Shown here: in pieces, positions 1,941-14,161 of the stretch
How the letters are laid out: every line of letters starts with the position of its first letter
How positions within the stretch are numbered: the first letter of the stretch is position 1
IMG/VR virus record: IMGVR_UViG_3300045391_005622
Location: 1 to 14,161 of that record
Length of the DNA: 14,161 nt
Reading direction: 5' to 3' (one strand)
Origin: a virus
The notes under the pieces: model-generated
The model's database searches: none
The model's input: the letters and a program-made list of their open reading frames with translations, nothing else
Told to the model about the DNA's origin: nothing
Translations under genes and position numbers: made by a program

Positions 1941-3041
1941 GTGCTAAAAGTGCTGCAGATACCACACAGCCCATATAAGCGCCGCAAGCCGGCCGCAATT
2001 CTCACCCCTGGTTCACAAAAATGGGTAGACAGGCAAGCCCCGCTGAAGGCCTCTAAATGGCGCTCAAAGGAAGAGTTTGCCAGGATGACCGGCCGCGCGG
2101 ATCTCCTTGATAAGTTAGCACAACTATCGCAACCCGCGCTGGGGGCCAGTTCCAGCAACGGATCGGAAAAGGAATTTCTGCGGAAAAGAGCCAAACGGAA
2201 ATATTTCACGCAGTACCTGGCAGGCCAGCTGGCCATGCTCGAAAGCCCGTTAAAAAAAGCCTATCGCAATTCACTGCATTGCTGCAGTGAATTAAAGCAG
2301 CACGAAGACAAGATAACCGCGAAGTATTGTAAAAACCGCTGGTGCATGGTATGCAATTCTATACGCACGGCTAAAAATATCAATGGGTATGAGCCGGAAT
2401 TTAAAAAGCTGTTAGATCCTCAATTCCTTACGCTGACCGTTCCCAACGTCAAAAAAGATGAACTACGGGAAACAATCCGGTGCATGAAAAAGACCTGGCA
2501 GGCCGTATATAAAAAGTTCCACCGGCAATGCCAGAAACTAAAAATTAAGCTGGTTGGGGTGCAAAAATTGGAATGCACCTATAATGCAGTAGAGGACACA
2601 TATCACCCTCATTTTCACTTCATTATAGATGGAAAGCCGATTGCATCGGCAATACATGATGAATGGTTGGCCCGGTTTCCATCGGCTAGGCGTGCAGCGC
2701 AAGATCTTCGCCCTGCGGATCTCAATTCAATGAAGGAAATGTTTAAATATTTTACCAAAGTTGTTACCACCAGTGGCAACACCAGGCGGATCTATATTCC
2801 TGCAATGGACGTAATTTTTCAAGCCATGCAGGGCTTTAGAGTTTTTCAACCGTTTGGCATAAAGGCGGTGAATGATGAACCGGACGACCTGGAAGCAATT
2901 ACCCTGGAAGAAAAAGTAGATCAGCTTGTCTGGTGGAAATGGACGGGTAACGATTGGCACGACACAGCAACCGGCAAACCATTAACCGGCTTTGAACGTG
3001 TAACGGTATATGATGAACTCTTTAAAAATGCAGCTTTGTAG
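1941..3041 (+). CDS. rep: Rolling-circle replication initiator, pC194/pUB110 (Rep_1) type HUH endonuclease
   Basis: All family motifs are visible: Cys cluster YCKNRWCMVCNSIR, motif I FLTLTVPN, HUH motif YHPHFHFII, and the catalytic E-x3-Y motif MKEMFKYFTK. The ORF opens at GTG 1941. ATG 2085 (MTGRADLL...) is an equally plausible or better start. Confidence 0.9.
   Translation: MLKVLQIPHSPYKRRKPAAILTPGSQKWVDRQAPLKASKWRSKEEFARMTGRADLLDKLAQLSQPALGASSSNGSEKEFLRKRAKRKYFTQYLAGQLAMLESPLKKAYRNSLHCCSELKQHEDKITAKYCKNRWCMVCNSIRTAKNINGYEPEFKKLLDPQFLTLTVPNVKKDELRETIRCMKKTWQAVYKKFHRQCQKLKIKLVGVQKLECTYNAVEDTYHPHFHFIIDGKPIASAIHDEWLARFPSARRAAQDLRPADLNSMKEMFKYFTKVVTTSGNTRRIYIPAMDVIFQAMQGFRVFQPFGIKAVNDEPDDLEAITLEEKVDQLVWWKWTGNDWHDTATGKPLTGFERVTVYDELFKNAAL
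2106..2112 (+). promoter_or_regulatory. Candidate double-strand-origin nick site (CTTGATA)
   Basis: This is the only CTTGATA I found in the window. It matches the CTTG/ATA nick core of pC194, pUB110 and phiX174 origins. It lies in the 5' part of rep, between short inverted repeats gcgcgg (2095-2100) and ccgcgc (2143-2148). A 7-mer alone is expected about once by chance. Confidence 0.3.
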
Positions 3042-4007: not shown

Positions 4008-4034
4008 GAAAAACCCCTGCAGATCCTGCAGGGG
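4008..4034 (-). terminator. Minus-strand-oriented intrinsic terminator hairpin
   Basis: Perfect stem cccctgcag / ctgcagggg (4014-4034) with loop atc. The A-run (4009-4013) is on the + strand upstream side, so it reads as a T-run only on the - strand. Shares the 13-nt core tgcagatcctgca with the 1393-1413 hairpin. Confidence 0.5.
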
Positions 4035-4229
4035 TAGCAAATGTTATCTGCATAGACCGGGCCAAATAGGCTGCTTTTGCCCAATTTTCAACCGCGTTGC
4101 CCGGCTTCGCATTGGCAACCTACATTTTTATTCTCCAAAAAACAAGCGTTTTGCCGTTGAACGGCATAAATTTTTTATTGTGCTATTGTAATAAAAATCT
4201 AAAGAAAGCGTTCATTCACCTGTTAGATC

Positions 4230-4250: not shown

Positions 4251-4700
4251 TTGAAAACCGAGAAACTTCTCCTCTACGGCGCTGCCGGCATTGCAGTATT
4301 TGCGATCTTTTCAAAAGCCCGCGCGCTGGGTAACCTGGTATTTACACCAGGTACAGTTTCCGCAATGGGTTTTACAAATGGAGTTCCCACCGCTGATGTG
4401 ACATTGATCGCACAAAATACCAGTACCACTGGCCTTACCATTAACAGCTTTGCCGGCAACGTCTTTTCAAATAATATTCTAATCGGCAATATTTTCAGCT
4501 TCGCCCCGGTGCATATTTCCGGCAATTCCCAAACACCTATCAACGTATCAATACAGTTTAAACCCCTTGGCGTTGTAACTGACTTAATCAGCGCATGGAA
4601 TACAAATAATTTTTCACAGGATATCACAGTAGAGGGCTTTGCAAATGTGCTAGGGCTGCAGCTGCCAATTAATTTACGTTTTAAGTTTGGCACCCCTTAA
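4251..4700 (+). CDS. N-terminally membrane-anchored beta-rich structural protein (149 aa)
   Basis: TTG start. N-terminal helix KLLLYGAAGIAVFAIFSKAR is followed by an alternating beta-strand pattern (LVFTPGTVSAMGF..ADVTLIAQNTS..LTINSFAGNVF) that loosely resembles LEA_2/WHy-type beta-sandwiches. That fold assignment is tentative. Confidence 0.7.
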   Translation: MKTEKLLLYGAAGIAVFAIFSKARALGNLVFTPGTVSAMGFTNGVPTADVTLIAQNTSTTGLTINSFAGNVFSNNILIGNIFSFAPVHISGNSQTPINVSIQFKPLGVVTDLISAWNTNNFSQDITVEGFANVLGLQLPINLRFKFGTP

Positions 4701-4711
4701 ACCTGCAAGGC

Positions 4712-6454
4712 ATGACAGTAACAAAAGAAAAATTATTGGACTTGCTGCCACCTTATACGGATGAATGGATCAAGGTGAAGGAGAAACAACAGGTAAAGGA
4801 TATTATAAAATTAATTTGTGAAAGGCATTTGGATTTTTGCAGTGATTACGATCTTATCTGCAGTGCTTTTGTTGGTGCCAGCTTGCAGGATACATGCAAC
4901 AACCTGTACGACTTTTGCGCGAAGAACTTGCATTATAAGGAAGAAAGCGAAGAAGTACAAACAGTTGGTAACCCTGCTTCAATTATTGCCAGGGGTGCCA
5001 CCGGAATTGATTGTAAATCCTACGCTCTTTTCATTGGCGGTTGCCTGGATGCAATACAAAGGGAGACAGGTAAAAAAATCGATTGGCATTACTGTTTTGC
5101 ATCTTACGATCCGATGCAAACAACCCCTTACCATGTGTTTGTTGTTGTTGAAACGGACAAGGGCTTGATGTATGTTGATCCAACGCCTGGCAGCGAAGAC
5201 AAGGAACCGGTATGGATAGTGAATAGGAAAGTGACCGGTCAAAAAATCAAAGGGTTAGTTTTAGGCAATAGGGAAAAGGAAGTGATCAGCGGTGCCAGCG
5301 CAGGCGGCAACGGGTTTTTGATGCCGGCCCCGGCTTGGTACCCTGACTATCTTCCAAAATTTTATAACAATGGTGACGGTTTCAGGCTGTACCCTCTCAA
5401 TGCCGTCCCGAAATATACGCAGGATGATGTTTTGGACGTGTGCTTATACTACCAAACATTGATCGGTTTTAATCGGGTAGACTGGCAAAACGCAAGGTCT
5501 GCAGCCTGGAAGTATACAGACGGCACCGGCGGCGCTGAAATCTGGGTAAAGTCGGCATTGAAAGCTGATGCCAATGGTGATGGCAGCGGGAATTTTGCAC
5601 GGATATCGCCCAACGGGCAATCAATAGACGGTGCATTTTATTCCCAACTGCAGGCCAGGTATATTTTCAGAGAAAAGAGCACAAAGCCCTGGCTATCCTC
5701 AATGCAGGCAAAGGGCGGCGGGATCGATTTAATGACAATACCAATGGCTAATGACGTTGAAGTGCCGCGGCCGTCCTGGTATCCTGCACACCTGCCATCA
5801 TTGTTTTTTTCAGCTGGTAACCCTGGCCAGTACGCGGCCGGTCATTTGGATACAAAGCCGAAAATTAGAAACGGCAAGGCGTCAACGTGGGGGCCATACA
5901 CGGTAACCCCTGCAGATGTGGCTAACTACATGGTATATGCGCAGCCATTGATTTACGCAGGTTCAACACCTTACCCGTTGAACTGGTATATTAATGACGA
6001 TGTAAACGGGGCAATGGCCAGCTATTTTAAAATTACGCTGGGTTTCACAGAGGGGCATACTAATTCGCAAATGCAGGTTAATGTGGGCATCACTGGAAAT
6101 ATTTTGGAACAACCGGTATTAGATGCCAACCCTTACACCAGCGGTTTTACAAGGACGTTAGAAGACATTGTGAGCGCGGCAATAAATTTCTTTGCCGGAA
6201 AGATACCAGGCGGCACAAAGATGGTGCAGGCGGCTTATGCTGCAGGCCAGATAAAAGCCGGCGAATATATTACCGGCGGTGCAATGCCACCAGGTGCATT
6301 TTCTGCAGCGGTTTTCCGTGAAGCTGATGCACTGGTAACACAGATTGCAACGGATCAGAAAAATAAAAAAACTTTTCTTTTTGTCCTGGTGGCAGCTGGC
6401 CTGTTAGGCTGGTATTACCGCAATGACCTGAAGAAAATGGAATTTACTTTATAA
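4712..6454 (+). CDS. Large virion-type protein (580 aa): N-terminal transglutaminase-like Cys-His-Asp domain, duplicated middle domain, C-terminal TM anchor
   Basis: GIDCKSYALFIGGCL (Cys101, codon 5012-5014), PYHVFVVVE (His141, 5132-5134) and LMYVDPT (Asp156, 5177-5179) match the transglutaminase-core pattern G.C..(F/Y)A...H.(W/F).E....G....DPT. The motif P.P.WYP..LP..F occurs twice (aa ~205 and ~352). C-terminus is KKNKKTFLFVLVAAGLLGWYY. Confidence 0.8.
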   Translation: MTVTKEKLLDLLPPYTDEWIKVKEKQQVKDIIKLICERHLDFCSDYDLICSAFVGASLQDTCNNLYDFCAKNLHYKEESEEVQTVGNPASIIARGATGIDCKSYALFIGGCLDAIQRETGKKIDWHYCFASYDPMQTTPYHVFVVVETDKGLMYVDPTPGSEDKEPVWIVNRKVTGQKIKGLVLGNREKEVISGASAGGNGFLMPAPAWYPDYLPKFYNNGDGFRLYPLNAVPKYTQDDVLDVCLYYQTLIGFNRVDWQNARSAAWKYTDGTGGAEIWVKSALKADANGDGSGNFARISPNGQSIDGAFYSQLQARYIFREKSTKPWLSSMQAKGGGIDLMTIPMANDVEVPRPSWYPAHLPSLFFSAGNPGQYAAGHLDTKPKIRNGKASTWGPYTVTPADVANYMVYAQPLIYAGSTPYPLNWYINDDVNGAMASYFKITLGFTEGHTNSQMQVNVGITGNILEQPVLDANPYTSGFTRTLEDIVSAAINFFAGKIPGGTKMVQAAYAAGQIKAGEYITGGAMPPGAFSAAVFREADALVTQIATDQKNKKTFLFVLVAAGLLGWYYRNDLKKMEFTL

Positions 6455-6463
6455 TTTTTATTC

Positions 6464-6472
6464 AATCCAATA
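6464..6472 (+). promoter_or_regulatory. AATCCAATA upstream motif, copy 2
   Basis: 9-mer ending 3 nt upstream of ATG 6476. Confidence 0.4.
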
Positions 6473-6475
6473 TCT

Positions 6476-7222
6476 ATGCAGGACGGCATTCAAACCGGCT
6501 TGATCTACAATGGTGCAGTTGTAAAAGATGCACCAGGTATCAGCCCAATAGATCTGATTTACGATGTTAATGCAAACAGCAGCGATATTGATCTATCGTC
6601 TCCCCTGGTTGTAACAAACCTAACACCCATTACCACGGGCGATCCTCTTGCCCCAACTGAAGCCCCGCCAATTGCGCCAAATGTGATGGCAATCCCTGCA
6701 CCAGCTGAAGACACTAAGAAAAGCCACAAAATACTTTTTGTTGGTGCTGGCCTGGGTGCACTGATGCTGTTATCAAAAGACAGTAAAAAAGCTGCAGGCC
6801 TTGGCAGTATTGGAAAGGGAAAAAAGAAAACGTCTTTACTGCCATTGCTATTGGTAGGCGGTGCAGCTGCACTTTATTATTTCTCAAAAAGCGAAAACGG
6901 TATAGATGATCCGGAAGCGGCCGGGCTGGTAGTTGTACCAGGGCTGGCAAAGCTAACTGAAGTAGAACGCGACGCAGTTTTTGCACGCACTGCAGGCTGG
7001 GTCAATCCGCATGGCGGTTATTACCCTGAAATCTACAGGGACGTGTTATTGCTAGGCCTGCCATTGTACGCTGATATATGGCGCAAGATGAGCCAGGAAG
7101 AGACAACACAAATTTACCAGCTGGTGATCGATCACCCTGCAGGATTGCTGCAGGCTGAAAACCCTCTTTTGTACAGCCAGGTACAGGCCATCAAAGAAAA
7201 ATACAATTTGAAATTTTATTAA
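6476..7222 (+). CDS. Two-pass membrane protein (248 aa)
   Basis: Pro/Ala-rich N-terminal region, helices ILFVGAGLGALMLL and SLLPLLLVGGAAALYYF separated by a basic loop, and a soluble C-terminal domain. Confidence 0.8.
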   Translation: MQDGIQTGLIYNGAVVKDAPGISPIDLIYDVNANSSDIDLSSPLVVTNLTPITTGDPLAPTEAPPIAPNVMAIPAPAEDTKKSHKILFVGAGLGALMLLSKDSKKAAGLGSIGKGKKKTSLLPLLLVGGAAALYYFSKSENGIDDPEAAGLVVVPGLAKLTEVERDAVFARTAGWVNPHGGYYPEIYRDVLLLGLPLYADIWRKMSQEETTQIYQLVIDHPAGLLQAENPLLYSQVQAIKEKYNLKFY

Positions 7223-7231
7223 AATAACTCT

Positions 7232-7825
7232 ATGTCAAACGCACTGAAGGCGATCAACAAAAGGGTAAAAGCCCTGGCCAAAAAGCATCCAAAAAGCAAA
7301 CGTTCTACGCTGCAGAAACAAGCCGGCCGCGAATGGAAAGCCGGCAAGCTGAAAGCCAGGCGCAAAAAAGTTGCAGTGAAAAAAGTTGTACGCAAAAAAC
7401 GTGCAACGGCAAAACGCACGCCCCGCAAAGTTGGCAAGCCCACAACAGTTGTGTACAGCCTGGGTAAGTTGATAAAACGCAAGCGCAGGAAGGCTGCACC
7501 AAAAAAACGCAGCCATACAAGGCGCAAGGTATCCGGTAGCGGTAAGAGTTCATTAACACCATTGTTATTGGTTGGCGGCTTAGGCCTGGCAGCTTACATG
7601 CTGTTTAAAAGTAATGCTGCACCGCAACAACAATTGTATACTACCAACAACCCGCAAAGAGATGCAAGCGCAAACAATATTTTATTGTATGCAACAGCTG
7701 CAGGCATGACAGCAAAAGCAATTGCCGATCTCATCAATGCAATAAATAAAAGCAGTGATGCTGCAGTAATTAACGCGGCGCAAAATCCGCAAACTGCAAT
7801 CGATCAGCTGTTAAGTGGTGATTGA
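7232..7825 (+). CDS. Protamine-like, highly basic DNA-binding candidate fused to a TM anchor (197 aa)
   Basis: I count about 43 Lys/Arg and one acidic residue in the first ~107 residues. These are followed by SLTPLLLVGGLGLAAYMLF and a polar C-terminal tail. Confidence 0.8.
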   Translation: MSNALKAINKRVKALAKKHPKSKRSTLQKQAGREWKAGKLKARRKKVAVKKVVRKKRATAKRTPRKVGKPTTVVYSLGKLIKRKRRKAAPKKRSHTRRKVSGSGKSSLTPLLLVGGLGLAAYMLFKSNAAPQQQLYTTNNPQRDASANNILLYATAAGMTAKAIADLINAINKSSDAAVINAAQNPQTAIDQLLSGD

Positions 7826-7872
7826 TAAGTAAAAAACCAGGTAATAATTCTAAACCATATTACACAACTACA

Positions 7873-7986
7873 ATGGCAAAGACAGTAAAACCAAAAACAC
7901 CGGCAACCGATGCACCTGCAGGCTATGATCACGAAAGCGGCGCACCCAAACCAGTGAAAGACGTTCCTGCAGGTTATGAAGAGTAA
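7873..7986 (+). CDS. Possible mini-ORF (37 aa), not in the supplied track
   Basis: Translated by hand as MAKTVKPKTPATDAPAGYDHESGAPKPVKDVPAGYEE. It fills an otherwise empty 223-bp gap. It contains two PAGY repeats, each encoded across a CCTGCAGG octamer. Confidence 0.3.
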   Translation: MAKTVKPKTPATDAPAGYDHESGAPKPVKDVPAGYEE

Positions 7987-8048
7987 CCGCAAAAAAATCA
8001 GTTAACCCGCTAGCTGCGGACATTTTTAAAAATTCAATATTCAATCAA

Positions 8049-8672
8049 ATGGCTAAAAAGAAAAAGTCACACAAGCGCAGAAAAGTTTCTGGCCTGGGTG
8101 CAATGCTCAATCCAAAAAGCCCATTGGTAAAACTCGCAGCTATTGCCGGCGGTTACCTGATGGCAGACACGATCAACGACAATTTAAAAAAGCTGGTGCC
8201 AGATTCATTGACAAAGCCCACAGCGGCAACGGCAACAACCCCGGCAAAGCCTGCAACCTTATCAGCTGACACACTCGATCAGATTATGATCGCTGGTGAA
8301 GTTGGCCTGGGTGCATTGCTGATGCTGAAGGGCAAACCGTCCCTGGTGAAAGACATTGCCGGCGGCGTGCTTGCTGGTGCAGGTCTGAAACTGGCCCTGG
8401 TATCATTCGATATAATTAAACCTGCAGCGGTTACCGGTTACCAACGTGTACCAGTGATCGGCGGCTATCAAAAAGTACCTGTTATTGGCAACGTGCCAGC
8501 GCAGCTGCAGGGAACAGTAGCCAGCAAGCCAGCGCAGCTGCAGGGCTACCGTGTGAACGGTTACAATAACCAGGGCAGCGGCGCTGTAATGGGTTCATTG
8601 TTTACCACTGCAGACGCGGCCAATGGTACAGGGTCAGGCCTGGCACATGGTAATAGCGGTTATATGAACTAA
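8049..8672 (+). CDS. Membrane-associated structural protein (207 aa) with internal peptide repeats
   Basis: Basic N-terminus MAKKKKSHKRRKVSGLG resembles HTRRKVSGSG of ORF 7232. Has hydrophobic segments. Repeats are GYQRVPVIG/GYQKVPVIG and PAQLQG x2. Confidence 0.8.
   Translation: MAKKKKSHKRRKVSGLGAMLNPKSPLVKLAAIAGGYLMADTINDNLKKLVPDSLTKPTAATATTPAKPATLSADTLDQIMIAGEVGLGALLMLKGKPSLVKDIAGGVLAGAGLKLALVSFDIIKPAAVTGYQRVPVIGGYQKVPVIGNVPAQLQGTVASKPAQLQGYRVNGYNNQGSGAVMGSLFTTADAANGTGSGLAHGNSGYMN
8495..8545 (+). repeat. 18-bp exact direct repeat pair inside the CDS (gccagcgcagctgcaggg at 8495-8512 and 8528-8545)
   Basis: Read directly from the sequence. In-frame with a 33-nt period, and encodes the two PAQLQG copies. 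Confidence 0.85.
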
Positions 8673-8704
8673 CCAGGTCAACAGCCTCGGAATTGCTAAA
8701 GAAA

Positions 8705-8713
8705 AATCCAATA
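8705..8713 (+). promoter_or_regulatory. AATCCAATA upstream motif, copy 3 (extended form GCTAAAGAAAAATCCAATA...CAAAAG)
   Basis: Lies in the 73-nt leader of the capsid candidate. The extended motif is shared with copies at 10912-10940 and 13294-13325. Confidence 0.45.
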
Positions 8714-8745
8714 TCCAAAAGAGCAACCATAAAAACCAATATAAA

Positions 8746-9456
8746 ATGAACAACACAAACAATGTGTCAGCTCGTATGAGTTTTGACATTGCACGCAACG
8801 TACTGTACAAATCCTGGATCGGATCATTCGGCGGCGATTCTAAGGCCTGCTGGGACTGGGTAGACGGCCGCAAACTTTCACAAAGCGAAGTAAGGTGCGA
8901 AGTAAAGCTGAACACCACCAATACAAATTTCACCTTTGGTGTAATACAACAGCAGCCCAACAGCAGCGCTGTTACATTCCCAACTGAACGCAGGCTGGCC
9001 ATGCAGGATAGCTTGATCGTTGCAGAGTATGGAATATTTGTAGGCGTTGCTGCCAGTGACACTGACAGTAACTGGCTTGCGAAGACTTACGGCAACCCCA
9101 ATGTATTTACCACCGCTGGTTCATTTGCAGCCATTGACGGCGGTTTCTACTCGTCTGGTGGCTTCCAGATGACCGTGAACAATGATACAATCATTCCTTA
9201 CCGTGGCTTGCTTAACCATTACTACAGACCGCAAACGCAGCAGATTGCAGCAATTGCAGTTGGTGCAGTAGGTGACCAGCTGCGCGGCGCTGAAGATGGC
9301 ATGATCACACAGGAACCAAATCTTCTGCTGATCGGATCTAAAAATTATGTTCCGCAAATCGTGTTGCCAGCTGCACTTGCTGCAGTTACTCCCAACACAC
9401 GCGCGGTGCTGATTTTCCGTGGCGTTCTTGCACAAAACAGCACTGTTATCAATTAA
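8746..9456 (+). CDS. Major capsid protein candidate (236 aa, beta-rich, jelly-roll-like)
   Basis: No TM segments and an alternating beta-strand pattern. It has the longest leader carrying the conserved motif and is followed by a terminator hairpin. The function is inferred, not recognised by homology. Confidence 0.55.
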   Translation: MNNTNNVSARMSFDIARNVLYKSWIGSFGGDSKACWDWVDGRKLSQSEVRCEVKLNTTNTNFTFGVIQQQPNSSAVTFPTERRLAMQDSLIVAEYGIFVGVAASDTDSNWLAKTYGNPNVFTTAGSFAAIDGGFYSSGGFQMTVNNDTIIPYRGLLNHYYRPQTQQIAAIAVGAVGDQLRGAEDGMITQEPNLLLIGSKNYVPQIVLPAALAAVTPNTRAVLIFRGVLAQNSTVIN

Positions 9457-9489
9457 CAGTAGCGGGATCTGGATCTACATTCTTACATG

Positions 9490-9530
9490 AAAAACCCCGG
9501 CAACCGGTAACACAGCCGGCCCGGGGCTTT
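9490..9530 (+). terminator. Terminator or attenuator hairpin after the capsid candidate
   Basis: A5, then ccccgg (9495-9500) ... ccgggg (9521-9526) with an inner ccgg/ccgg stem, then cttt. Confidence 0.5.
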
Positions 9531-9547
9531 CACAAACTATTAAACCA

Positions 9548-10054
9548 ATGGACAGAATAATATTAGTCGCTGATGAGCCCCGCAATTGCTCTGAACTGGT
9601 AGAAGTGCCAGTGACAACCACAGGGCTTTTTCGGATCAACTTTCCCGATAATCAGCAGCTGCGCTCTATGCGTACACAAGATATCCGTATACAGGGTATA
9701 CGGTTAATCACACCAGACGTGGCCAGCTTTGGCCCGATCACTGGTTACCGCACCGCACCGGTTGCAGAGTTGAAAAAATGTTTCCTGGTGCTGTATTGCG
9801 AAGGATGGGAGAAAGCCCATTACATACCGCTGCAGGTGCTCAATGATACCAATATGCCATCCGGCACAGCTGCACACCGTTACAGTGCAACAAAATTTGG
9901 AAGTTGGCGCAATGTGGATTGGGGTAAGTCTTATATCCTTTACAGCAATGGCACCGGTGGCAGTGATGTTAGCGGCGGCAATTATGAATTTCTTTTTGAT
10001 GTAGAGTACACAAAATTAGACGCTGAAGGCAAGGAGATAATAGGGCCATCTTAA
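9548..10054 (+). CDS. Second beta-rich capsid protein candidate (168 aa; single jelly-roll size, minor capsid or penton)
   Basis: About eight predicted beta segments (LFRINFP, IRIQGIRLI, CFLVLYCEG, HYIPLQVL, SYILY, YEFLFDVEY). No TM segments. Confidence 0.5.
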   Translation: MDRIILVADEPRNCSELVEVPVTTTGLFRINFPDNQQLRSMRTQDIRIQGIRLITPDVASFGPITGYRTAPVAELKKCFLVLYCEGWEKAHYIPLQVLNDTNMPSGTAAHRYSATKFGSWRNVDWGKSYILYSNGTGGSDVSGGNYEFLFDVEYTKLDAEGKEIIGPS

Positions 10055-10105
10055 CCGGCGGCCCCTCTCAAAAAACGCGATATCTAATTTTTTAAAGCAA
10101 TAGTT

Positions 10106-10891
10106 ATGGCTGGGCAATCTGTACAATTTTTTGGTAGAGCGGCCGTGTTAAACGCATACCGGGCCAGGGGCATTGATACCTGGGGGCTTTTTGATAAAAA
10201 GCAATTTATTAACGCTGGCCAGGATGAAAACGATCTATCTGCATTCCTGGAAATGTTAGAACCTGGTGGATCGCAAAGCGTTTACACGTTGAAGGTATAC
10301 CGCGATGTAGATGACATTGATTTATTAACCGATCGCACTGAATGCAATGGATCTTTCAATTTCAAATTGTTTCAGGCAATGGCCCCGGCTTCACTTGCAC
10401 CGGCAACGGTTGGCAATCCTTCACCTGGTGCCAGGTATGCTGATCCGATTTACCAAAAGATACACGGCATAATAGATCAGGAAGTAAGCGCAGCCATTGA
10501 AAAGCGGTTAAGCGGCAAAAGCCAGGATGAAGAGGAAGAGAAAGAACAATCCTGGAATGAAGTTATAATGGGTTATGTCAACAGCCCGGAAAAACTCAAC
10601 GCAGTATTGCCGGTGATACAGTCAACATTGCAGACACTAGGCGCAATTTTTCGCCCTGGTGGCGTTGCACCTGCAGCGGTTGGCATACCAGTAAGCCTGG
10701 CAGGTACGCAGCCAGTGCAAAGGGTAGGGGCTGTACAGCAACCTACCAATGATGAGAAGTTAGCCAGGCTGGCAGCTGCACTGGATAAATGGGAAAGCCT
10801 AGATCCTGATGCACTGACAGTAATTGAAAAAATTGTTGCACTTGCGGAAAACGATCCTGGCAAGTACAAGATGGCAAAGAGTTTTTTATAA
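10106..10891 (+). CDS. Hypothetical protein (261 aa), possible scaffold or assembly factor
   Basis: Globular N-terminal domain, Ala/Pro linkers with the repeated motif APATVGNP / APAAVGIP, an acidic patch SQDEEEEKEQ and a helical C-terminus. No TM segments. Confidence 0.7.
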   Translation: MAGQSVQFFGRAAVLNAYRARGIDTWGLFDKKQFINAGQDENDLSAFLEMLEPGGSQSVYTLKVYRDVDDIDLLTDRTECNGSFNFKLFQAMAPASLAPATVGNPSPGARYADPIYQKIHGIIDQEVSAAIEKRLSGKSQDEEEEKEQSWNEVIMGYVNSPEKLNAVLPVIQSTLQTLGAIFRPGGVAPAAVGIPVSLAGTQPVQRVGAVQQPTNDEKLARLAAALDKWESLDPDALTVIEKIVALAENDPGKYKMAKSFL

Positions 10892-10919
10892 ATGTGTCAC
10901 TCGCCTACATGGCTAAAAA

Positions 10920-10928
10920 AATCCAATA
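10920..10928 (+). promoter_or_regulatory. AATCCAATA upstream motif, copy 4 (GCTAAAAAAATCCAATA...CAAAAG)
   Basis: Ends 18 nt upstream of ATG 10947. Confidence 0.45.
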
Positions 10929-10946
10929 CCCGCAAAAGCCGTTGTT

Positions 10947-11771
10947 ATGATTAAAAAATTAATTGCAGTTGATGAAAAGGGCGAACCGGTAAAAAATGCC
11001 GTGTTCACTTTTACGCAAGTGCAAGCAGATGGCAGCACGGGTATTGTTGCAGTAGCTGATGGCGGGCAAAGTGGCGTGGTATCATTCGACACACAAACCG
11101 ATCCCAATTTATTTTCAAGCGATAACCATATAACAGTAGAGGCGCCAGGTTTTTTAAAAAGTGGCGTGGATGCTGATGTTATTGGTGATGCCTGGCAATT
11201 TACAATGGCCAAAAGTGCTTCAATGGTGCCAGCGTTAACGCTGGGTGCATTGGTGGCAGTGGGTGCCGTTGCCATCTACAGGAAAGGCAATAAAAGTAAA
11301 GTAGGTGCATTTAATGCAAAAGATGATTTATTGCCCTGGGTTGTTCCTGCAGCCGTTGTAGTTGGCGGTTATGCATTATATAAAAAATTCTTTGGCAAAA
11401 GCGAAGAGGACAAAGCACGCGATCAGGCGCTAAGTGATGACATTGCAAATGCACAGCAGGAAGAGCCGGCAAGAATGTTAGACAGTGAGATCGCAGCTAC
11501 TGCAAATGCACTGGTAGAAGATCTGACCTATTCACACCCCTTTGGAGACAGCGATCAGCAATTGGACGCGGCACACCAGCTGACAAAGCCAGGCACACTG
11601 GTAGACCTGTTACGATTAATAAAGCAATACGGAAAACACTATATAACATACTTCGGCATTCCTGCAGGCAGTTTCACATTAGAAGAGACAGTAACCCGCA
11701 AATTAGATCGGGAAATCATTGACGAAATAAACCGCTATTACAGAGCGCAAGGCATCAACTTTCAATTTTAA
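10947..11771 (+). CDS. Two-pass membrane protein (274 aa) with an N-terminal Ig/CarboxypepD_reg-like beta domain
   Basis: N-terminus IAVDEKGEPVKNAVFTF...ITVEAPGF resembles carboxypeptidase-regulatory-like beta-sandwiches (tentative). Helices are ALTLGALVAVGAVAIY and LLPWVVPAAVVVGGYALYKKFF. Has a helical C-terminal domain. Confidence 0.8.
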   Translation: MIKKLIAVDEKGEPVKNAVFTFTQVQADGSTGIVAVADGGQSGVVSFDTQTDPNLFSSDNHITVEAPGFLKSGVDADVIGDAWQFTMAKSASMVPALTLGALVAVGAVAIYRKGNKSKVGAFNAKDDLLPWVVPAAVVVGGYALYKKFFGKSEEDKARDQALSDDIANAQQEEPARMLDSEIAATANALVEDLTYSHPFGDSDQQLDAAHQLTKPGTLVDLLRLIKQYGKHYITYFGIPAGSFTLEETVTRKLDREIIDEINRYYRAQGINFQF

Positions 11772-11775
11772 TTCT

Positions 11776-12156
11776 ATGAACCATTGTGATAATAACGGCT
11801 TACAAGTAAAGTACCTGCAAGGCCGTGGCCAGGTGCAAGTGCCTGCAGAGTCAATGCAGGTGGCCAGGGTTTACAATATGTCCGTGCAGACCTATACAAC
11901 AAGCGCGAATGTATTGGTAGAAAGTAATTGTTTTTCATTCATGTTTACCAACCTGGGAGACACAATAGCCAGGGTAAACGGTATGATCATTTATCCACCG
12001 GCAACACCTGGTGCACAGCTGGGAGACAGCCGATCAATCAGTGCACACGTATTGGATCTGTTTAAAGGAAATATAACTATTGCTTTTGATCCGGGCGGTA
12101 CTGCGCCCCTCGTTGAAGTTGTGCAGCTGTATTACGCTGAACAATACCACCATTAA
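11776..12156 (+). CDS. Small beta-rich structural protein (126 aa), possible vertex or adaptor protein
   Basis: Beta-strand-dominated sequence with no TM segments, located immediately upstream of the spike-like gene. Confidence 0.6.
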   Translation: MNHCDNNGLQVKYLQGRGQVQVPAESMQVARVYNMSVQTYTTSANVLVESNCFSFMFTNLGDTIARVNGMIIYPPATPGAQLGDSRSISAHVLDLFKGNITIAFDPGGTAPLVEVVQLYYAEQYHH

Positions 12157-12171
12157 TAAAAAAATTAATTT

Positions 12172-13269
12172 ATGGGTTTATCTACTGGCTTTGGTGTATC
12201 TCAAAAATCAGAGGCTGGCGGCGGTATGCCGGCGCCCCCCTTCGATCCAACAAGTGCCCACAATGGCACAAGCATTGACGCGGCCGGAAAAGTTGTATTA
12301 GGAAATGATGGCGGTTTATATCCTGGCCCTGGTGCTTTTGAAAATACCAGGGAAATTGATATGAACAGCCATGATTTTTTGATCGGCCGTTCAAATAAAA
12401 CTGCTGCTGGAAATGTAATCATCACAGCAGTTACAACAGAAATTACCGGCCCGGTGCAAGAAGATAGCGCCTATGATTTTTTCCTGGTTGATCAGGAATT
12501 TAACATAGGCGGCAGTCCTGTTTTAATGCGGTTGGCAGTTACAAAAAGTTTTGCCAGCAACAATGCATGCTTTATGAAAATGAATGAAGCGGTTGCAGGG
12601 ATCGACATTCACACATTTAAATTAAACGGTGATTTTGCTTTCGGTAATAATGGCGCCGGCGGTATTATACAATCAGACAGTGGGATACTTTGGATACGGC
12701 CGGATGGTATTACCAGGTACGGACTTTTCAACGGCGGAGATGCAGAAATAAAGCTGGGTGACCTGGAAGGGACTTTCAGCAGTGCAAGGTTAAATATCTT
12801 TTTGGCAACCGGCCGGATGACTTTCACTGATGGCTTTGGTAACGAGTATTTGTCCGCAAGTTCACAGGGCGGCGCTTTGGGTAACGTTACAGATGCAACA
12901 CAGCCAAAATTAGTGGTAAACGGTAGCAGCAACGCGATCAGCGGGTATGTAGGAGACTCTGAAACTTTTAGAGTTGATAACGGTGCAGGCGCTGGCCTTG
13001 AAGCGTTCCTGGGTGATGTGAACAGCGTTGCAAATAGTACACTGCTTATTATTGATGACCGTACAGGCAACCAGCGGGTAACAATCACTGCAGCAAATGG
13101 CCTGGTAGTAAATGCAACCAACGGATATTTTGCACAGACCGGCGGCACGTTAACCAATGGCGCTGCAGCTGCAGCCGGCACGTTGAACAATGCACCCGTA
13201 GCTGGCAACCCCACAAAGTGGATCAAAATACGGGATGCAGGGGTAGACCGTTTTATACCCGCGTGGTAA
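12172..13269 (+). CDS. Spike or receptor-binding protein candidate (365 aa)
   Basis: Gly/Asn/Ala-rich beta-type sequence with a flexible Gly-rich N-terminus. The C-terminal motif GNPTKWIKIRDAGVDRFIPAW is of a kind I recall at the ends of phage fibre or spike proteins. It is the last structural gene before the lysis genes. Confidence 0.6.
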   Translation: MGLSTGFGVSQKSEAGGGMPAPPFDPTSAHNGTSIDAAGKVVLGNDGGLYPGPGAFENTREIDMNSHDFLIGRSNKTAAGNVIITAVTTEITGPVQEDSAYDFFLVDQEFNIGGSPVLMRLAVTKSFASNNACFMKMNEAVAGIDIHTFKLNGDFAFGNNGAGGIIQSDSGILWIRPDGITRYGLFNGGDAEIKLGDLEGTFSSARLNIFLATGRMTFTDGFGNEYLSASSQGGALGNVTDATQPKLVVNGSSNAISGYVGDSETFRVDNGAGAGLEAFLGDVNSVANSTLLIIDDRTGNQRVTITAANGLVVNATNGYFAQTGGTLTNGAAAAAGTLNNAPVAGNPTKWIKIRDAGVDRFIPAW

Positions 13270-13334: not shown

Positions 13335-13487
13335 ATGCAAACAGAACAGGCATTAAAAATTATTCAACAGCTGCAGGACGTTGCAATACAAAAAGGATTA
13401 TTTGCAAACGTTCAAACAGTTAACCAGGTATCAACAGCAATTGCAACGCTGCAGGCTGCATTATTAGAACGCAATGAAGGCAAGTGA
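13335..13487 (+). CDS. Small helical protein (50 aa), not in the supplied track; overlaps the endolysin start
   Basis: Translated by hand as MQTEQALKIIQQLQDVAIQKGLFANVQTVNQVSTAIATLQAALLERNEGK. Its stop at 13485-13487 overlaps the lysozyme ATG (13474) by 14 nt. No TM segment, so it is not a holin. Confidence 0.5.
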   Translation: MQTEQALKIIQQLQDVAIQKGLFANVQTVNQVSTAIATLQAALLERNEGK

Positions 13488-13992
13488 TAAATATTTAATT
13501 GCTGCAGGTGCATTGGTTGTGCTGATGCTGTTACCTGGTACATTAAACCGTGGAGATATGACAGCAGCAAATTTAATTGCATCGTTTGAGGGCTTTGCAA
13601 GCCATCCGTATTGGGACGTAAATAGATGGTCCTGGGGTTACGGCACCAGGGCGCCAGGGAATTACGGTTATGCGCTGGCCTTTCCTGATCCTGCAGTAAC
13701 GATCACCAGGGCAGAGGCGCTGCAGGAATTGCAAGCGCATGCAGATAGTGATTACAACTACCTGGCACCGATGATCACGCGGCCGCTAAGCGCTGGCCAG
13801 TGGGCGGCGCTGTTATCGTTCTCATACAATACCGGCCAGGGCAATGCAGACAACCTGGTGCCAAATATCAATGCCGGCAATGATCTGGCCCTGGAAAGCC
13901 AATGGAAAAAATATGTATATGCCGGTGGCCAGGTTAATGCCACCCTGCAGAAACGCAGGGAAAAAGAGTGGCAGATCTGGCAAGCCGGTTAA
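13474..13992 (+). CDS. Endolysin, GH24 (T4/lambda-type) lysozyme with an N-terminal signal-anchor (SAR-like)
   Basis: The catalytic region SFEGFASHPYWDVNRWSWGYGT fits the GH24 pattern E-x8-D-x(n)-(S/T)..GYG. It is preceded by the hydrophobic segment YLIAAGALVVLMLL. Confidence 0.85.
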   Translation: MKASDKYLIAAGALVVLMLLPGTLNRGDMTAANLIASFEGFASHPYWDVNRWSWGYGTRAPGNYGYALAFPDPAVTITRAEALQELQAHADSDYNYLAPMITRPLSAGQWAALLSFSYNTGQGNADNLVPNINAGNDLALESQWKKYVYAGGQVNATLQKRREKEWQIWQAG

Positions 13993-14083: not shown

Positions 14084-14109
14084 GCCCTGGGTTTTTACTC
14101 GGGGCTTTT
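14084..14109 (+). terminator. Weak terminator after the lysis genes
   Basis: gccctg (14084-14089) pairs with cggggc (14100-14105) with one G-U pair, then TTTT. The cggggctttt tail resembles the 1817-1846 hairpin. Confidence 0.35.
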
Positions 14110-14161
14110 ACTATTGCACCATTGGCCAATTATTTGCACCTTTGAATTGTCAGTAAACAAA
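14108..14161. repeat. Terminal direct repeat, copy 2
   Basis: Identical to 1-54. Confidence 0.9.

Follow-up and report, generated by a model that had tools for sequence, protein, structure and literature searches.

Predicted membrane anchors of mostly generic design in the late proteins of an uncultivated, tailless phage

Six open reading frames (ORFs) in the 14,161-nucleotide stretch of viral DNA analyzed here (the window) encode proteins with hydrophobic segments. A first-pass annotation of nucleotides (nt) 4251-11771 proposed that these segments represent a single module, a basic patch followed by a transmembrane (TM) anchor, which is reused in six structural proteins and points to a lipid-containing virion. 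Are the segments genuine membrane anchors, are they copies of one another, and what do they imply about the virion? The six peptides quoted in that annotation are each present in the ORF to which they had been assigned.

The window holds a complete circular genome of 14,107 bp, as its end (nt 14108-14161) repeats nt 1-54 exactly. The region of nt 4251-11771 is its late gene block, the products of which are assumed to have a role in the virion. The genome encodes a rolling-circle replication initiator with the HUH motif YHPHFHFII (nt 1941-3041, + strand; Pfam Rep_1, E=1.2e-14) and a lysozyme (nt 13474-13992, + strand; Phage_lysozyme, E=1.8e-19). The lysozyme has an N-terminal signal-peptide or SAR-like helix (aa 7-25, nt 13492-13548), which is kept in relatives. 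Its gene is located outside the late block, and the helix served as a same-genome control. No PHROG, Pfam or NCBIfam match to tail, portal or terminase proteins was found in the window ORFs, and no ATPase family was matched by the window ORFs scanned or in the precomputed Pfam annotations of relatives. The Walker A motif is absent from every real ORF of the genome, which is thus devoid of a P-loop ATPase. The sequence matches no cultured phage. It comes from an apparently undescribed, tailless phage of an uncultivated family, the host of which is probably a member of the Bacteroidota.

Hydropathy analysis detects runs of 15-22 uncharged residues, the Kyte-Doolittle mean of which over 15 residues (KD15) is 1.7-2.45, in five of the six ORFs (4251, 4712, 6476, 7232 and 10947) and in the N-terminal helix of the lysozyme. 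The segment of ORF 8049, KSPLVKLAAIAGGYLMAD, does not qualify as a TM segment, and has a conserved lysine in its core. The helices occupy constant positions in the orthologues from 13 related contigs while their sequences drift, which indicates that they are functional membrane segments. From hydropathy and the conservation of position, the hydrophobic segments are predicted to be genuine, conserved membrane anchors. They are not confined to the six, since the genome contains at least five more hydrophobic helices. Of the 12 late proteins, six or seven, assumed to be located in the virion, carry a total of 8-11 hydrophobic helices at positions that are the same in 13 genomes. The same criterion identifies a segment in eight of 51 proteins of phage T7, where gp16 is the only one annotated as structural. 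The basic half of the proposed module is less widespread. A strong basic patch (at least +5 net over 15 residues) is limited to the second helix of ORF 6476 (6476-TM2, +6), ORF 7232 (+7) and ORF 8049 (+5); the flanks in ORFs 4251 and 4712 and at 10947-TM2 carry +1 to +2.

The six proteins, all encoded on the + strand, differ in architecture. ORF 4251 (nt 4251-4700, 149 aa) begins with a signal-anchor helix (aa 6-21, nt 4266-4313; KD15 2.35) that is kept in 12 orthologues and precedes a weakly LEA_2-like β domain (E=5e-4, short of the Pfam cut-off). In ORF 4712 (nt 4712-6454, 580 aa), a middle domain separates an enzyme-like domain from a tail anchor at the C-terminus (aa 554-569, nt 6371-6418; KD15 1.94). 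Its enzyme-like part is a transglutaminase-like Cys-His-Asp domain (aa 1-175, nt 4712-5236), with matches to DUF553 (best E=1.2e-5) and Transglut_core among family members, in which C101, H141 and D156 are invariant. ORF 6476 (nt 6476-7222, 248 aa) has a hairpin, supported by hydropathy and orthologues, in which TM1 (aa 86-100, nt 6731-6775) and TM2 (aa 119-137, nt 6830-6886) are connected by a basic loop (aa 101-118, nt 6776-6829); the flank before TM2 has a net charge of +6. ORF 10947 (nt 10947-11771, 274 aa) contains an N-terminal domain, a TM hairpin detected in the same way, and a conserved C-terminal domain. The hairpin consists of TM1 (aa 90-111, nt 11214-11279), a basic loop (nt 11280-11327) and TM2 (aa 128-145, nt 11328-11381), so that the helix-basic loop-helix topology reported for these two ORFs is present in both.

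ORF 7232 (nt 7232-7825, 197 aa) encodes a protein with a net charge of +41. The N-terminal domain (aa 1-105, nt 7232-7546) is extremely basic, with 43 Lys/Arg residues (41%) and a single acidic one. The protein also has an RRKVSG motif, a TM helix recognized by hydropathy (aa 106-125, nt 7547-7606) and, at the C-terminus, another conserved domain. This architecture is the same in 12 genomes. ORF 8049 (nt 8049-8672, 207 aa) has a basic N-terminus with an RRKVSG motif (aa 1-23, net +9), a helix 1 with the conserved lysine (aa 24-39, nt 8118-8165), two Gly-rich helices (aa 78-95 and 103-122, nt 8280-8333 and 8355-8414) and two copies of GYQxVPVIG in its C-terminal part; the Gly-rich helices also fail the strict TM criterion. 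The motif H(T/K)RRKVSG(S/L)G described for these two ORFs was found as HTRRKVSGSG in ORF 7232 and HKRRKVSGLG in ORF 8049.

Comparison of gene arrangements indicates that the modularity of ORFs 4712, 6476 and 10947 is a product of fusion and fission of entire units, each comprising an anchor and a soluble domain. In L008, the counterpart of aa 200-572 of ORF 4712 is encoded by a gene of its own, and the part homologous to ORF 6476 is joined to a transglutaminase-like domain. Other lineages encode TM2 and the C-terminal domain of ORF 10947 as stand-alone proteins of ~160 aa, and its N-terminal domain with TM1 as proteins of ~100-120 aa. Domain shuffling, as initially suggested, therefore applies to anchor-plus-domain units, but not to one anchor module spreading to six proteins.

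The segments read as ordinary anchors, and the idea of six copies derived by duplication of one module is not supported. In Smith-Waterman comparisons, 8 of the 15 pairs score at or under the 95th percentile of a null built from helices of E. coli and its phages matched for composition. Segment scores run from 7 to 31 continuously, and the six as a set are slightly above the null (26.7 vs 19.4, with p=0.001 when flanks are included and p=0.04 for the cores alone). Their mutual likeness is no greater than their likeness to the genome's other helices (p=0.06); those helices, the lysozyme signal peptide included, score as high as most pairs of the supposed module. Two pairs alone, 6476-TM2/7232 (score of 56) and 4251/7232 (39), outscore every one of the 135 unrelated TM segments and remain significant after Bonferroni correction. 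Features common to all six are generic: a basic flank, a Gly/Ala/Leu-rich helix and a Tyr or aromatic end.

A narrower likeness joins 6476-TM2, 7232, 8049 helix 1 and 10947-TM2, in which a K/R run leads into (V/I)(S/G)G and a short linker; an S/D-h-h-P cap comes next, then a helix rich in Gly/Ala and finally a Tyr. The pattern may stem from old paralogy or from a common constraint. True paralogy would mean that a basic-loop-plus-helix or helix-loop-helix ancestor was duplicated, and that its copies now anchor at least the products of ORFs 6476, 7232, 8049 and 10947, perhaps those of all six. The outlying score of 6476-TM2/7232 speaks for such an origin, as does its z=5.9 against block shuffles; however, the control pair of the 4251 anchor and the lysozyme signal peptide reaches z=5.5, which shows that the shuffle null is too lenient. 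An S-S-h-h-P...AY(Y/F) pattern is common to the 6476 and 7232 families in six genomes, but the S-h-h-P cap is missing from 7232 orthologues of distant clades. RR(K/R)V(S/G)G precedes the helix in the 7232 and 8049 families of every clade, and a KK.V.G motif is present in the loops of 6476 and 10947. Profile-profile alignment, a check recommended by the first-pass annotation and run here with hhalign, returned probabilities from 12% to 70%: 6476/10947 are aligned over the 43-column hairpin at 70%, but 6476/7232, 8049/7232 and 7232/10947 reach only 26%, 18% and 12%, and local runs 51% at most. The mild excess of the six over the null favors paralogy, and the lack of a gap in the score distribution and of a strong patch in ORFs 4251 and 4712 argues against it. 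Because 6476-TM2/7232 clearly stands apart from the other pairs and the alignment of 6476/10947 reaches 70%, some paralogy may hold; as an explanation of the segments in general we regard it as unlikely.

The DNA of the segments shows no mark of either recent duplication or gene conversion, which also counts against paralogy. The 20-mers at nt 6842-6861 and 7559-7578, the similarity of which the annotation pointed out, are indeed identical at 18 of 20 positions. However, five such pairs occur in 9.7 kb, and the two 20-mers share five of nine codons where 2.46 are expected (P=0.07); codon usage suffices to account for the match. Similarity within a genome is about the same as between genomes, with little or no excess, and gene conversion is therefore not supported.

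Phages with an internal membrane must somehow select their membrane proteins. The segments could be a dedicated sorting signal, a motif recruiting proteins of the host cytoplasmic membrane into a virus-specific patch that becomes the virion membrane. A phage-specific membrane area has been described (PMC6356626). The constant positions of helices and basic flanks across the family, and the (V/I)(S/G)G following a K/R run in four families, are in line with such a signal. However, beyond positive-inside and Gly/Ala/Leu features nothing is common to all six, and the more specific cap is limited to some clades. The lysozyme signal peptide, presumably not a virion membrane protein, scores 33 against some anchors. 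Anchors of PRD1, PM2 and FLiP look alike to the present ones under the same criterion, and we know of no consensus signal among them. We consider a sorting signal improbable.

The virion itself can be approached through two other late proteins, ORF 8746 (nt 8746-9456, + strand, 236 aa) and ORF 9548 (nt 9548-10054, + strand, 168 aa). Their AlphaFold2 models (pLDDT of 81 and 86, respectively) are β-sandwiches, and the best Foldseek match of both is the major capsid protein (MCP) of SPV1 (6oj0_A), a weak match in each case (probability 0.99, E=9e-3 and probability 0.96, E=5e-3). The next matches of ORF 8746 in the PDB are other capsid jelly rolls, with P23-77 VP17 among the weaker ones; VP17 is not matched by ORF 9548. 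TM-scores of the capsid-fold matches are weak (0.35-0.5), and neither protein has sequence similarity to viruses of the SPV1/P23-77 type. At least 607 homologues of ORF 8746 are present on contigs of 13-17 kb. The models predict ORFs 8746 and 9548 to be a large and a small single jelly-roll capsid protein, respectively, as candidates.

The phage probably has a virion with an internal lipid membrane. Soft support comes from the two jelly-roll candidates, the lack of matches to tail and portal proteins and of a P-loop ATPase, the conserved helix positions and the density of TM proteins, which resembles those of PRD1, PM2 and FLiP and is unlike that of the T7 structural genes. The earlier proposal of virion lipid has thereby gained independent backing, short of proof. 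Alternatively, the virion might be lipid-free and the TM proteins might act only in the host membrane, in assembly, lysis, entry or exclusion; in the extreme version, the element would be inovirus-like, with coat proteins inserted in the membrane before extrusion. Inovirus coat proteins are built of a TM helix and a basic DNA-binding tail. Weak matches to REP_ORF2-G2P, the Rep type of inoviruses and plectroviruses, were also found, and one strand carries all genes. Nevertheless, the TM proteins are large, have conserved soluble domains, and are interleaved with capsid genes as in PM2 and FLiP, and the two predicted jelly-roll proteins in the middle of the block are highly conserved. We judge a lipid-free virion to be improbable. 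Assignment to the filamentous Inoviridae, for which we looked for a Zot/pI assembly ATPase, a short signal-peptide major coat protein and the absence of a lysin, was rejected: the genome lacks a Zot-like or other P-loop ATPase, encodes a lysozyme, and has the predicted jelly-roll proteins.

We favor, with somewhat better than even confidence, a late block of a tailless phage with genuine internal-membrane anchors, mostly generic in their likeness, and whole-unit fusion and fission. The anchored proteins would sit in a lipid membrane inside the virion. Their likeness would mostly reflect how single-pass and hairpin membrane proteins are generally built: a positive-inside basic flank, a short helix that is rich in Gly/Ala/Leu and has small residues at its center, and a Tyr or other aromatic residue at the far end. 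The basic patches would remain cytoplasmic during insertion. ORF 7232 is, by its composition, probably a membrane-tethered genome-binding protein. We hypothesize that its N-terminal domain, by binding the genome, keeps the latter tethered to the membrane, and that this tethering replaces the packaging ATPase absent from the genome. In the assembly model of PM2 and PhiCjT23, a membrane vesicle wraps the genome and minor membrane proteins attach the capsomers (PMC6356626; PMC9719478).

PM2 (Corticoviridae) and FLiP/PhiCjT23 (Finnlakeviridae) share with the present phage a small circular genome with a rolling-circle Rep, a lytic enzyme, TM-protein genes interleaved with capsid genes, and small virion proteins whose one or two TM helices are rich in Gly/Ala/Leu and have Lys/Arg flanks. 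Flavobacterium is the host of FLiP and PhiCjT23, which, to our knowledge, have no packaging ATPase. The present phage differs from the three in its larger genome (14-17 kb) and in having anchors on large domains (transglutaminase-like and +41 basic), and its two separate single jelly-roll candidates are unlike the double jelly roll of PM2 and FLiP. The two adjacent genes for candidate jelly-roll proteins recall SPV1 (Portogloboviridae) and P23-77 (Matsushitaviridae/Sphaerolipoviridae), viruses that combine two single-jelly-roll MCPs with an internal membrane, although the top structural match of both candidates to the SPV1 MCP is weak (E ~1e-2). SPV1 and P23-77 are dsDNA viruses of archaeal or Thermus hosts, whereas a Rep_1 initiator is encoded here. 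P23-77 has a packaging ATPase, to which we found no counterpart; dsDNA internal-membrane viruses have one of the FtsK/HerA type, and none was found here.

The basic domain of ORF 7232 (aa 1-105) is similar in composition to phiX174 J, adenovirus core proteins and the Arg-rich arms of CRESS capsids; a Lys/Arg-rich, acid-poor composition is typical of proteins that neutralize nucleic acids. Unlike these, it belongs to a protein that also includes a TM helix and a conserved domain at the C-terminus, and we know of no characterized membrane-tethered equivalent. PRD1 (Tectiviridae) has no homology to the present phage and differs in its linear genome, protein-primed replication, double-jelly-roll MCP and P9 ATPase, but also possesses many small, single-TM virion proteins with basic flanks (21 segments under the same criterion). 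PRD1 P7 is a virion-associated lytic enzyme with a membrane anchor, and is comparable to the enzyme-like domain and anchor of ORF 4712.

The late gene block of the window (nt 4251 onward, with ORFs named by their start nucleotide) encodes several proteins with hydrophobic helices. We scanned for uncharged stretches of at least 14 residues in which the Kyte-Doolittle mean over 15 residues reached 1.5 or more; biological-hydrophobicity values served as a second scale. Single helices were found in ORF 4251 (aa 6–21), ORF 4712 (aa 554–569), and ORF 7232 (aa 106–125), and helix pairs in ORF 6476 (aa 86–100 and 119–137) and ORF 10947 (aa 90–111 and 128–145). Residues 7–25 of the lysozyme also passed the scan. 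The first-pass annotation had proposed that one module, a basic patch followed by a transmembrane (TM) anchor, is reused in these five late proteins and in ORF 8049. All of its peptides occur at the stated positions, as do an 18/20 match between two stretches of DNA and the motif RRKVSG. The anchor of ORF 8049 (helix 1, aa 24–39), however, contains a conserved lysine and fails the scan. Two further Gly-rich helices of this protein fail it too, although all three are conserved. The basic patch is strong (net charge of at least +5) at three of the six segments, but below that at the other three.

Across 13 related contigs with 46–91% identity in the capsid protein (MCP), the helices keep their places in every orthologue even as their sequences diverge, which is good evidence that the predicted helices are functional membrane segments. 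Anchors as such are a known kind of feature. The signal anchor of ORF 4251 (4251–4700) is followed by a sub-threshold LEA_2 match (E=5e-4), and a weak LEA_2 match is also on record for the orthologues in contigs L006 and L008.

By their design, short Gly/Ala/Leu-rich anchors with basic flanks resemble one another, and tests based on residue shuffling make them seem more closely akin than they are. We compared the six segments with 135 TM segments that pass the same scan, taken from membrane proteins of E. coli and from phages PRD1, PM2, and FLiP. The phage controls closely resemble the window segments (for example FLiP ldkntkWYIGGALGAVLLVVLLTrkk and PM2 fgvpqkTLLLGFGGLLVLGLVMrgnk). The mean Smith-Waterman score was 26.7 among the six and 18.5 to the controls; for seven of the 15 pairs, at least 13% of control segments scored higher. 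Against a composition-matched null (Gly+Ala+Leu of at least 50%, with non-independent pairs), the excess was small (26.7 versus 19.4; p=0.001 with flanks, p=0.04 for cores only), and eight of the 15 pairs did not exceed the 95th percentile. The difference from the five remaining helices of this genome, including the lysozyme signal peptide, was non-significant (26.7 versus 21.7, p=0.06). The six segments thus do not stand out as one module. Only the pairs 6476-TM2/7232 (score 56; 6476-TM2 is the second helix of the ORF 6476 hairpin) and 4251/7232 (score 39) exceeded every control, and block-shuffle tests with Bonferroni correction singled out the same two.

Column-shuffling of family profiles gave z of 4–7 for candidate pairs; since the control pair of 4251 anchor and lysozyme signal peptide reached z=5.5, residue- and column-shuffle nulls are too lenient, and we rejected the significance that they assign to many pairs. 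Segment-profile scores formed a gapless continuum from 7 to 31. Profile-profile alignment did not unite the segments either: local runs of full-length profiles reached a probability of at most 51%, and deeper alignments gave 70% for 6476/10947 (a 43-column hairpin), 26% for 6476/7232, 18% for 8049/7232, and 12% for 7232/10947. The profile of ORF 6476 is shallow, with only four proteins found in a 5.8-billion-protein set.

Intragenomic duplication, which had been offered as the source of the anchors, found no support at the DNA level. Both copies of the 18/20 match encode PLLLVGG, and four other 18/20 pairs occur in the same 9.7 kb. Identical residues of the aligned block share a codon at five of nine positions, compared with 2.46 expected from genome codon usage (P=0.07). 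The similarity of 6476-TM2 to the ORF 7232 segment averages 42 within genomes and 38 ± 12 across genomes, so that gene conversion between the two is unsupported as well. Codon use, the number of 18/20 pairs, and the about equal similarity within and across genomes together reveal neither a recent duplication nor gene conversion.

Four of the segments follow a common pattern: a K/R run and (V/I)(S/G)G come first, a short linker leads to an S/D-h-h-P cap, and then come the Gly/Ala-rich helix and a tyrosine. The RR(K/R)(V/I)(S/G) ahead of the helix is kept in all clades of the 7232 and 8049 families. The S-S-h-h-P...AY(Y/F) part is kept in 6476-TM2 and ORF 7232 in six genomes, and is gone from distant-clade ORF 7232 orthologues. 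As judged from these sequences, the pattern could reflect old paralogy or a shared constraint. RRKVSG might belong to a Tat-type signal, a reading for which we make no claim; in ORF 7232 the distance of about 95 residues between the N-terminus and the motif makes it unlikely. An internal duplication of ORF 8049 seen by eye (GLGAML..KSPLVK versus GLGALL..KPSLVK) was not recovered by hhalign self-comparison, which returned only a GYQxVPVIG tandem. This tandem lies at aa ~128–165 (8430–8540), where two GYQ(R/K)VPVIG copies are followed by two PAQLQG, conserved family-wide; in the DNA, the copies at 8492 and 8525 agree at 18 of 20 positions.

Domain shuffling, also put forward for the anchors, is visible for whole anchored units but not for a single anchor module. 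ORF 4712 is a composite of a transglutaminase-like Cys-His-Asp domain (4712–5236, aa 1–175; C101, H141, and D156 invariant) and a tail-anchored domain. DUF553 is matched in five relatives (best E=1.2e-5) and Transglut_core in six. In contig L008, the equivalent of aa 200–572 with its tail anchor is a separate gene elsewhere, and the transglutaminase-like domain is fused instead to a 6476-like hairpin protein. The domain is joined to a three-TM region in L007 and L009, and is free in L002–L004 and L018, in one clade as a 170-aa protein. It may act as a peptidase or lytic enzyme carried in the virion; V-S-G-x-G might be read as an adenain-like cleavage site for it, a reading for which we make no claim. 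The 10947 family (92 representatives) includes many proteins of ~160 aa that comprise only TM2 and the C-domain, and others of ~100–120 aa with the N-domain and TM1. The arrangements of ORFs 4712 and 10947 indicate that shuffling moves anchored units as wholes, with the junction in the loop that separates the helices. The TM2 and C-terminal domain of ORF 10947 (aa ~127–274) is widespread as a stand-alone ~160-aa protein (set P0255–P0336); in other proteins, up to 690 aa long, it is attached to N-terminal regions that are unrelated. An h-L-P helix start is visible in several stand-alone forms, such as P0275, P0276, P0280, and P0289.

For ORF 8746 (8746–9456) we count at least 607 homologues, as clusters at 90% identity, almost all of them from contigs of 13–17 kb; for ORF 9548 (9548–10054) the count is at least 123. 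Their AlphaFold models are confident β-sandwiches (pLDDT 81 and 86, respectively). The best PDB match of both is the major capsid protein of Sulfolobus polyhedral virus 1 (6oj0_A), with probabilities of 0.99 and 0.96; the matches are weak (E=9e-3 and 5e-3, TM-scores 0.35–0.5). Weaker matches of ORF 8746 are the viral jelly rolls of PBCV-1, PRD1, P23-77 VP17, the FLiP penton, and circoviruses. Those of ORF 9548 are capsid proteins of iridovirus, PBCV-1, PRD1, and hepatitis A virus, together with unrelated β-sandwich proteins. Sequence profiles of the two ORFs had no match among PDB sequences, and no sequence relationship between them was detectable. The models suggest, with moderate confidence, that ORFs 8746 and 9548 are two single-jelly-roll capsid proteins.

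An exact 54-nt direct repeat (nt 1–54 and 14108–14161) shows that the genome is circular, measures 14,107 bp, and is complete in the window. Every sizeable ORF is on the + strand, including the rolling-circle initiator (1941–3041; Pfam Rep_1, E=1.2e-14; HUH motif YHPHFHFII) and the lysozyme (13474–13992, E=1.8e-19), which has a signal-peptide-like N-terminal helix. The lysozyme start (13474–13560) encodes a signal-peptide or SAR-like helix, with AxA-like sites in relatives, for example ASAQS. No holin was recognised in the window. ORFs 4251 to 13269 had no match at a useful level in PHROGs, Pfam, or NCBIfam, whose usable yield was limited to Rep_1, Phage_lysozyme, the sub-threshold LEA_2, and the transglutaminase-like matches in relatives. 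A small ORF without a TM helix (7822–7986) lies between ORFs 7232 and 8049 and probably starts at an internal ATG (MAKTVKPK...); genes of 44–56 aa are called at its position in L015, L016, and L017.

None of the 17 genes is preceded by a Shine-Dalgarno-like sequence, the upstream regions being A/T-rich, and the Bacteroidota-type -7 promoter motif TAnnTTTG stands ahead of both gene blocks (at 1504 and 3841). Because this combination is the Bacteroidota style of expression signals, it suggests a Bacteroidota host. No cultured-phage match emerged when 50,697 phage records were searched with the window by megablast and with ORF 8746 by tblastn. A scan of GTDB genomes gave no prophage copies, and IMG/VR contained only four relatives. 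We found no published description of this phage family; the Charybdis elements of a preprint were judged unrelated.

Of the 12 late proteins, six to seven have hydrophobic helices. Scanned likewise, T7 has a helix in 8 of 51 proteins, and gp16 is the only one of these annotated as structural; PRD1, PM2, and FLiP contain 21, 9, and 7 segments, respectively. No tail, portal, or terminase gene was matched in PHROGs, Pfam, or NCBIfam, and a Walker A scan of all window ORFs found no motif and hence no P-loop ATPase. From the density of TM proteins, the jelly-roll candidates, the lack of these genes, and a late-block layout similar to that of PM2 and FLiP, we infer that an internal membrane in the virion is the best reading. 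The lipid-containing virion of the first-pass annotation thus gains soft support from features other than a shared anchor.

In the assembly model of PM2 and PhiCjT23, a vesicle wraps the genome and capsomers dock on minor membrane proteins (PMC6356626; PMC9719478). The membrane-anchored ORF 7232 protein, with 43 Lys/Arg and one acidic residue in its first 105 residues, fits this model; judging by composition, it may bind the genome. Tentatively, and with more doubt than confidence, we propose a widespread Bacteroidota phage family, apparently undescribed in the literature, with circular, possibly single-stranded rolling-circle genomes and two single-jelly-roll proteins over an internal membrane. 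Such phages would have no packaging ATPase; instead, a membrane-tethered, histone-like ORF 7232 protein would compact the genome and link it with the lipid vesicle. Fusion and fission would serve to exchange anchored modules (the transglutaminase-like enzyme and the 10947-type domain).

Tailless phages with a membrane have been sampled too little, and only a few are in culture; the double jelly roll is presumed to descend from an arrangement of two separate jelly-roll capsid proteins. FLiP and PM2 share a circular genome and rolling-circle Rep with the window lineage, and FLiP, too, is not known to have a packaging ATPase. The lineage would combine a FLiP/PM2-like lifestyle with two separate capsid jelly rolls and, probably, a Bacteroidota host, a combination that appears new compared with the descriptions found in the literature. 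Confirmation would bring a new branch into the debate on relations between ssDNA and dsDNA jelly-roll viruses, and would make ORF 7232 a concrete candidate for coupling genome and lipid vesicle without a packaging motor.

CTGCAG is the commonest hexamer in the window, with 46 copies compared with 4.6 ± 2.1 expected from dinucleotide shuffles. Its sites are spread window-wide (for example 245, 4017, 4026, 6792, 13163, and 13169), within ORFs mostly as Ala-centred nCT-GCA-Gnn, and TGCA occurs at about four times the base-composition expectation. The distribution in relatives is bimodal: 1.8–4.2 copies per kb in six (L001, L004, L008, and L015–L017) and zero or one copy in seven (L002, L003, L005–L007, L009, and L018). 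PRD1, PM2, FLiP, and E. coli have 0–0.3 per kb. Two related GC-rich hairpins, GCCGTGCAG-ATC-CTGCACGGC and CCCCTGCAG-ATC-CTGCAGGGG, at 1388–1425 and 4009–4046, have an ATC loop and CTGCAG-type stems in common. They precede the Rep block and the late block, respectively, and could be terminators or origin-related structures.
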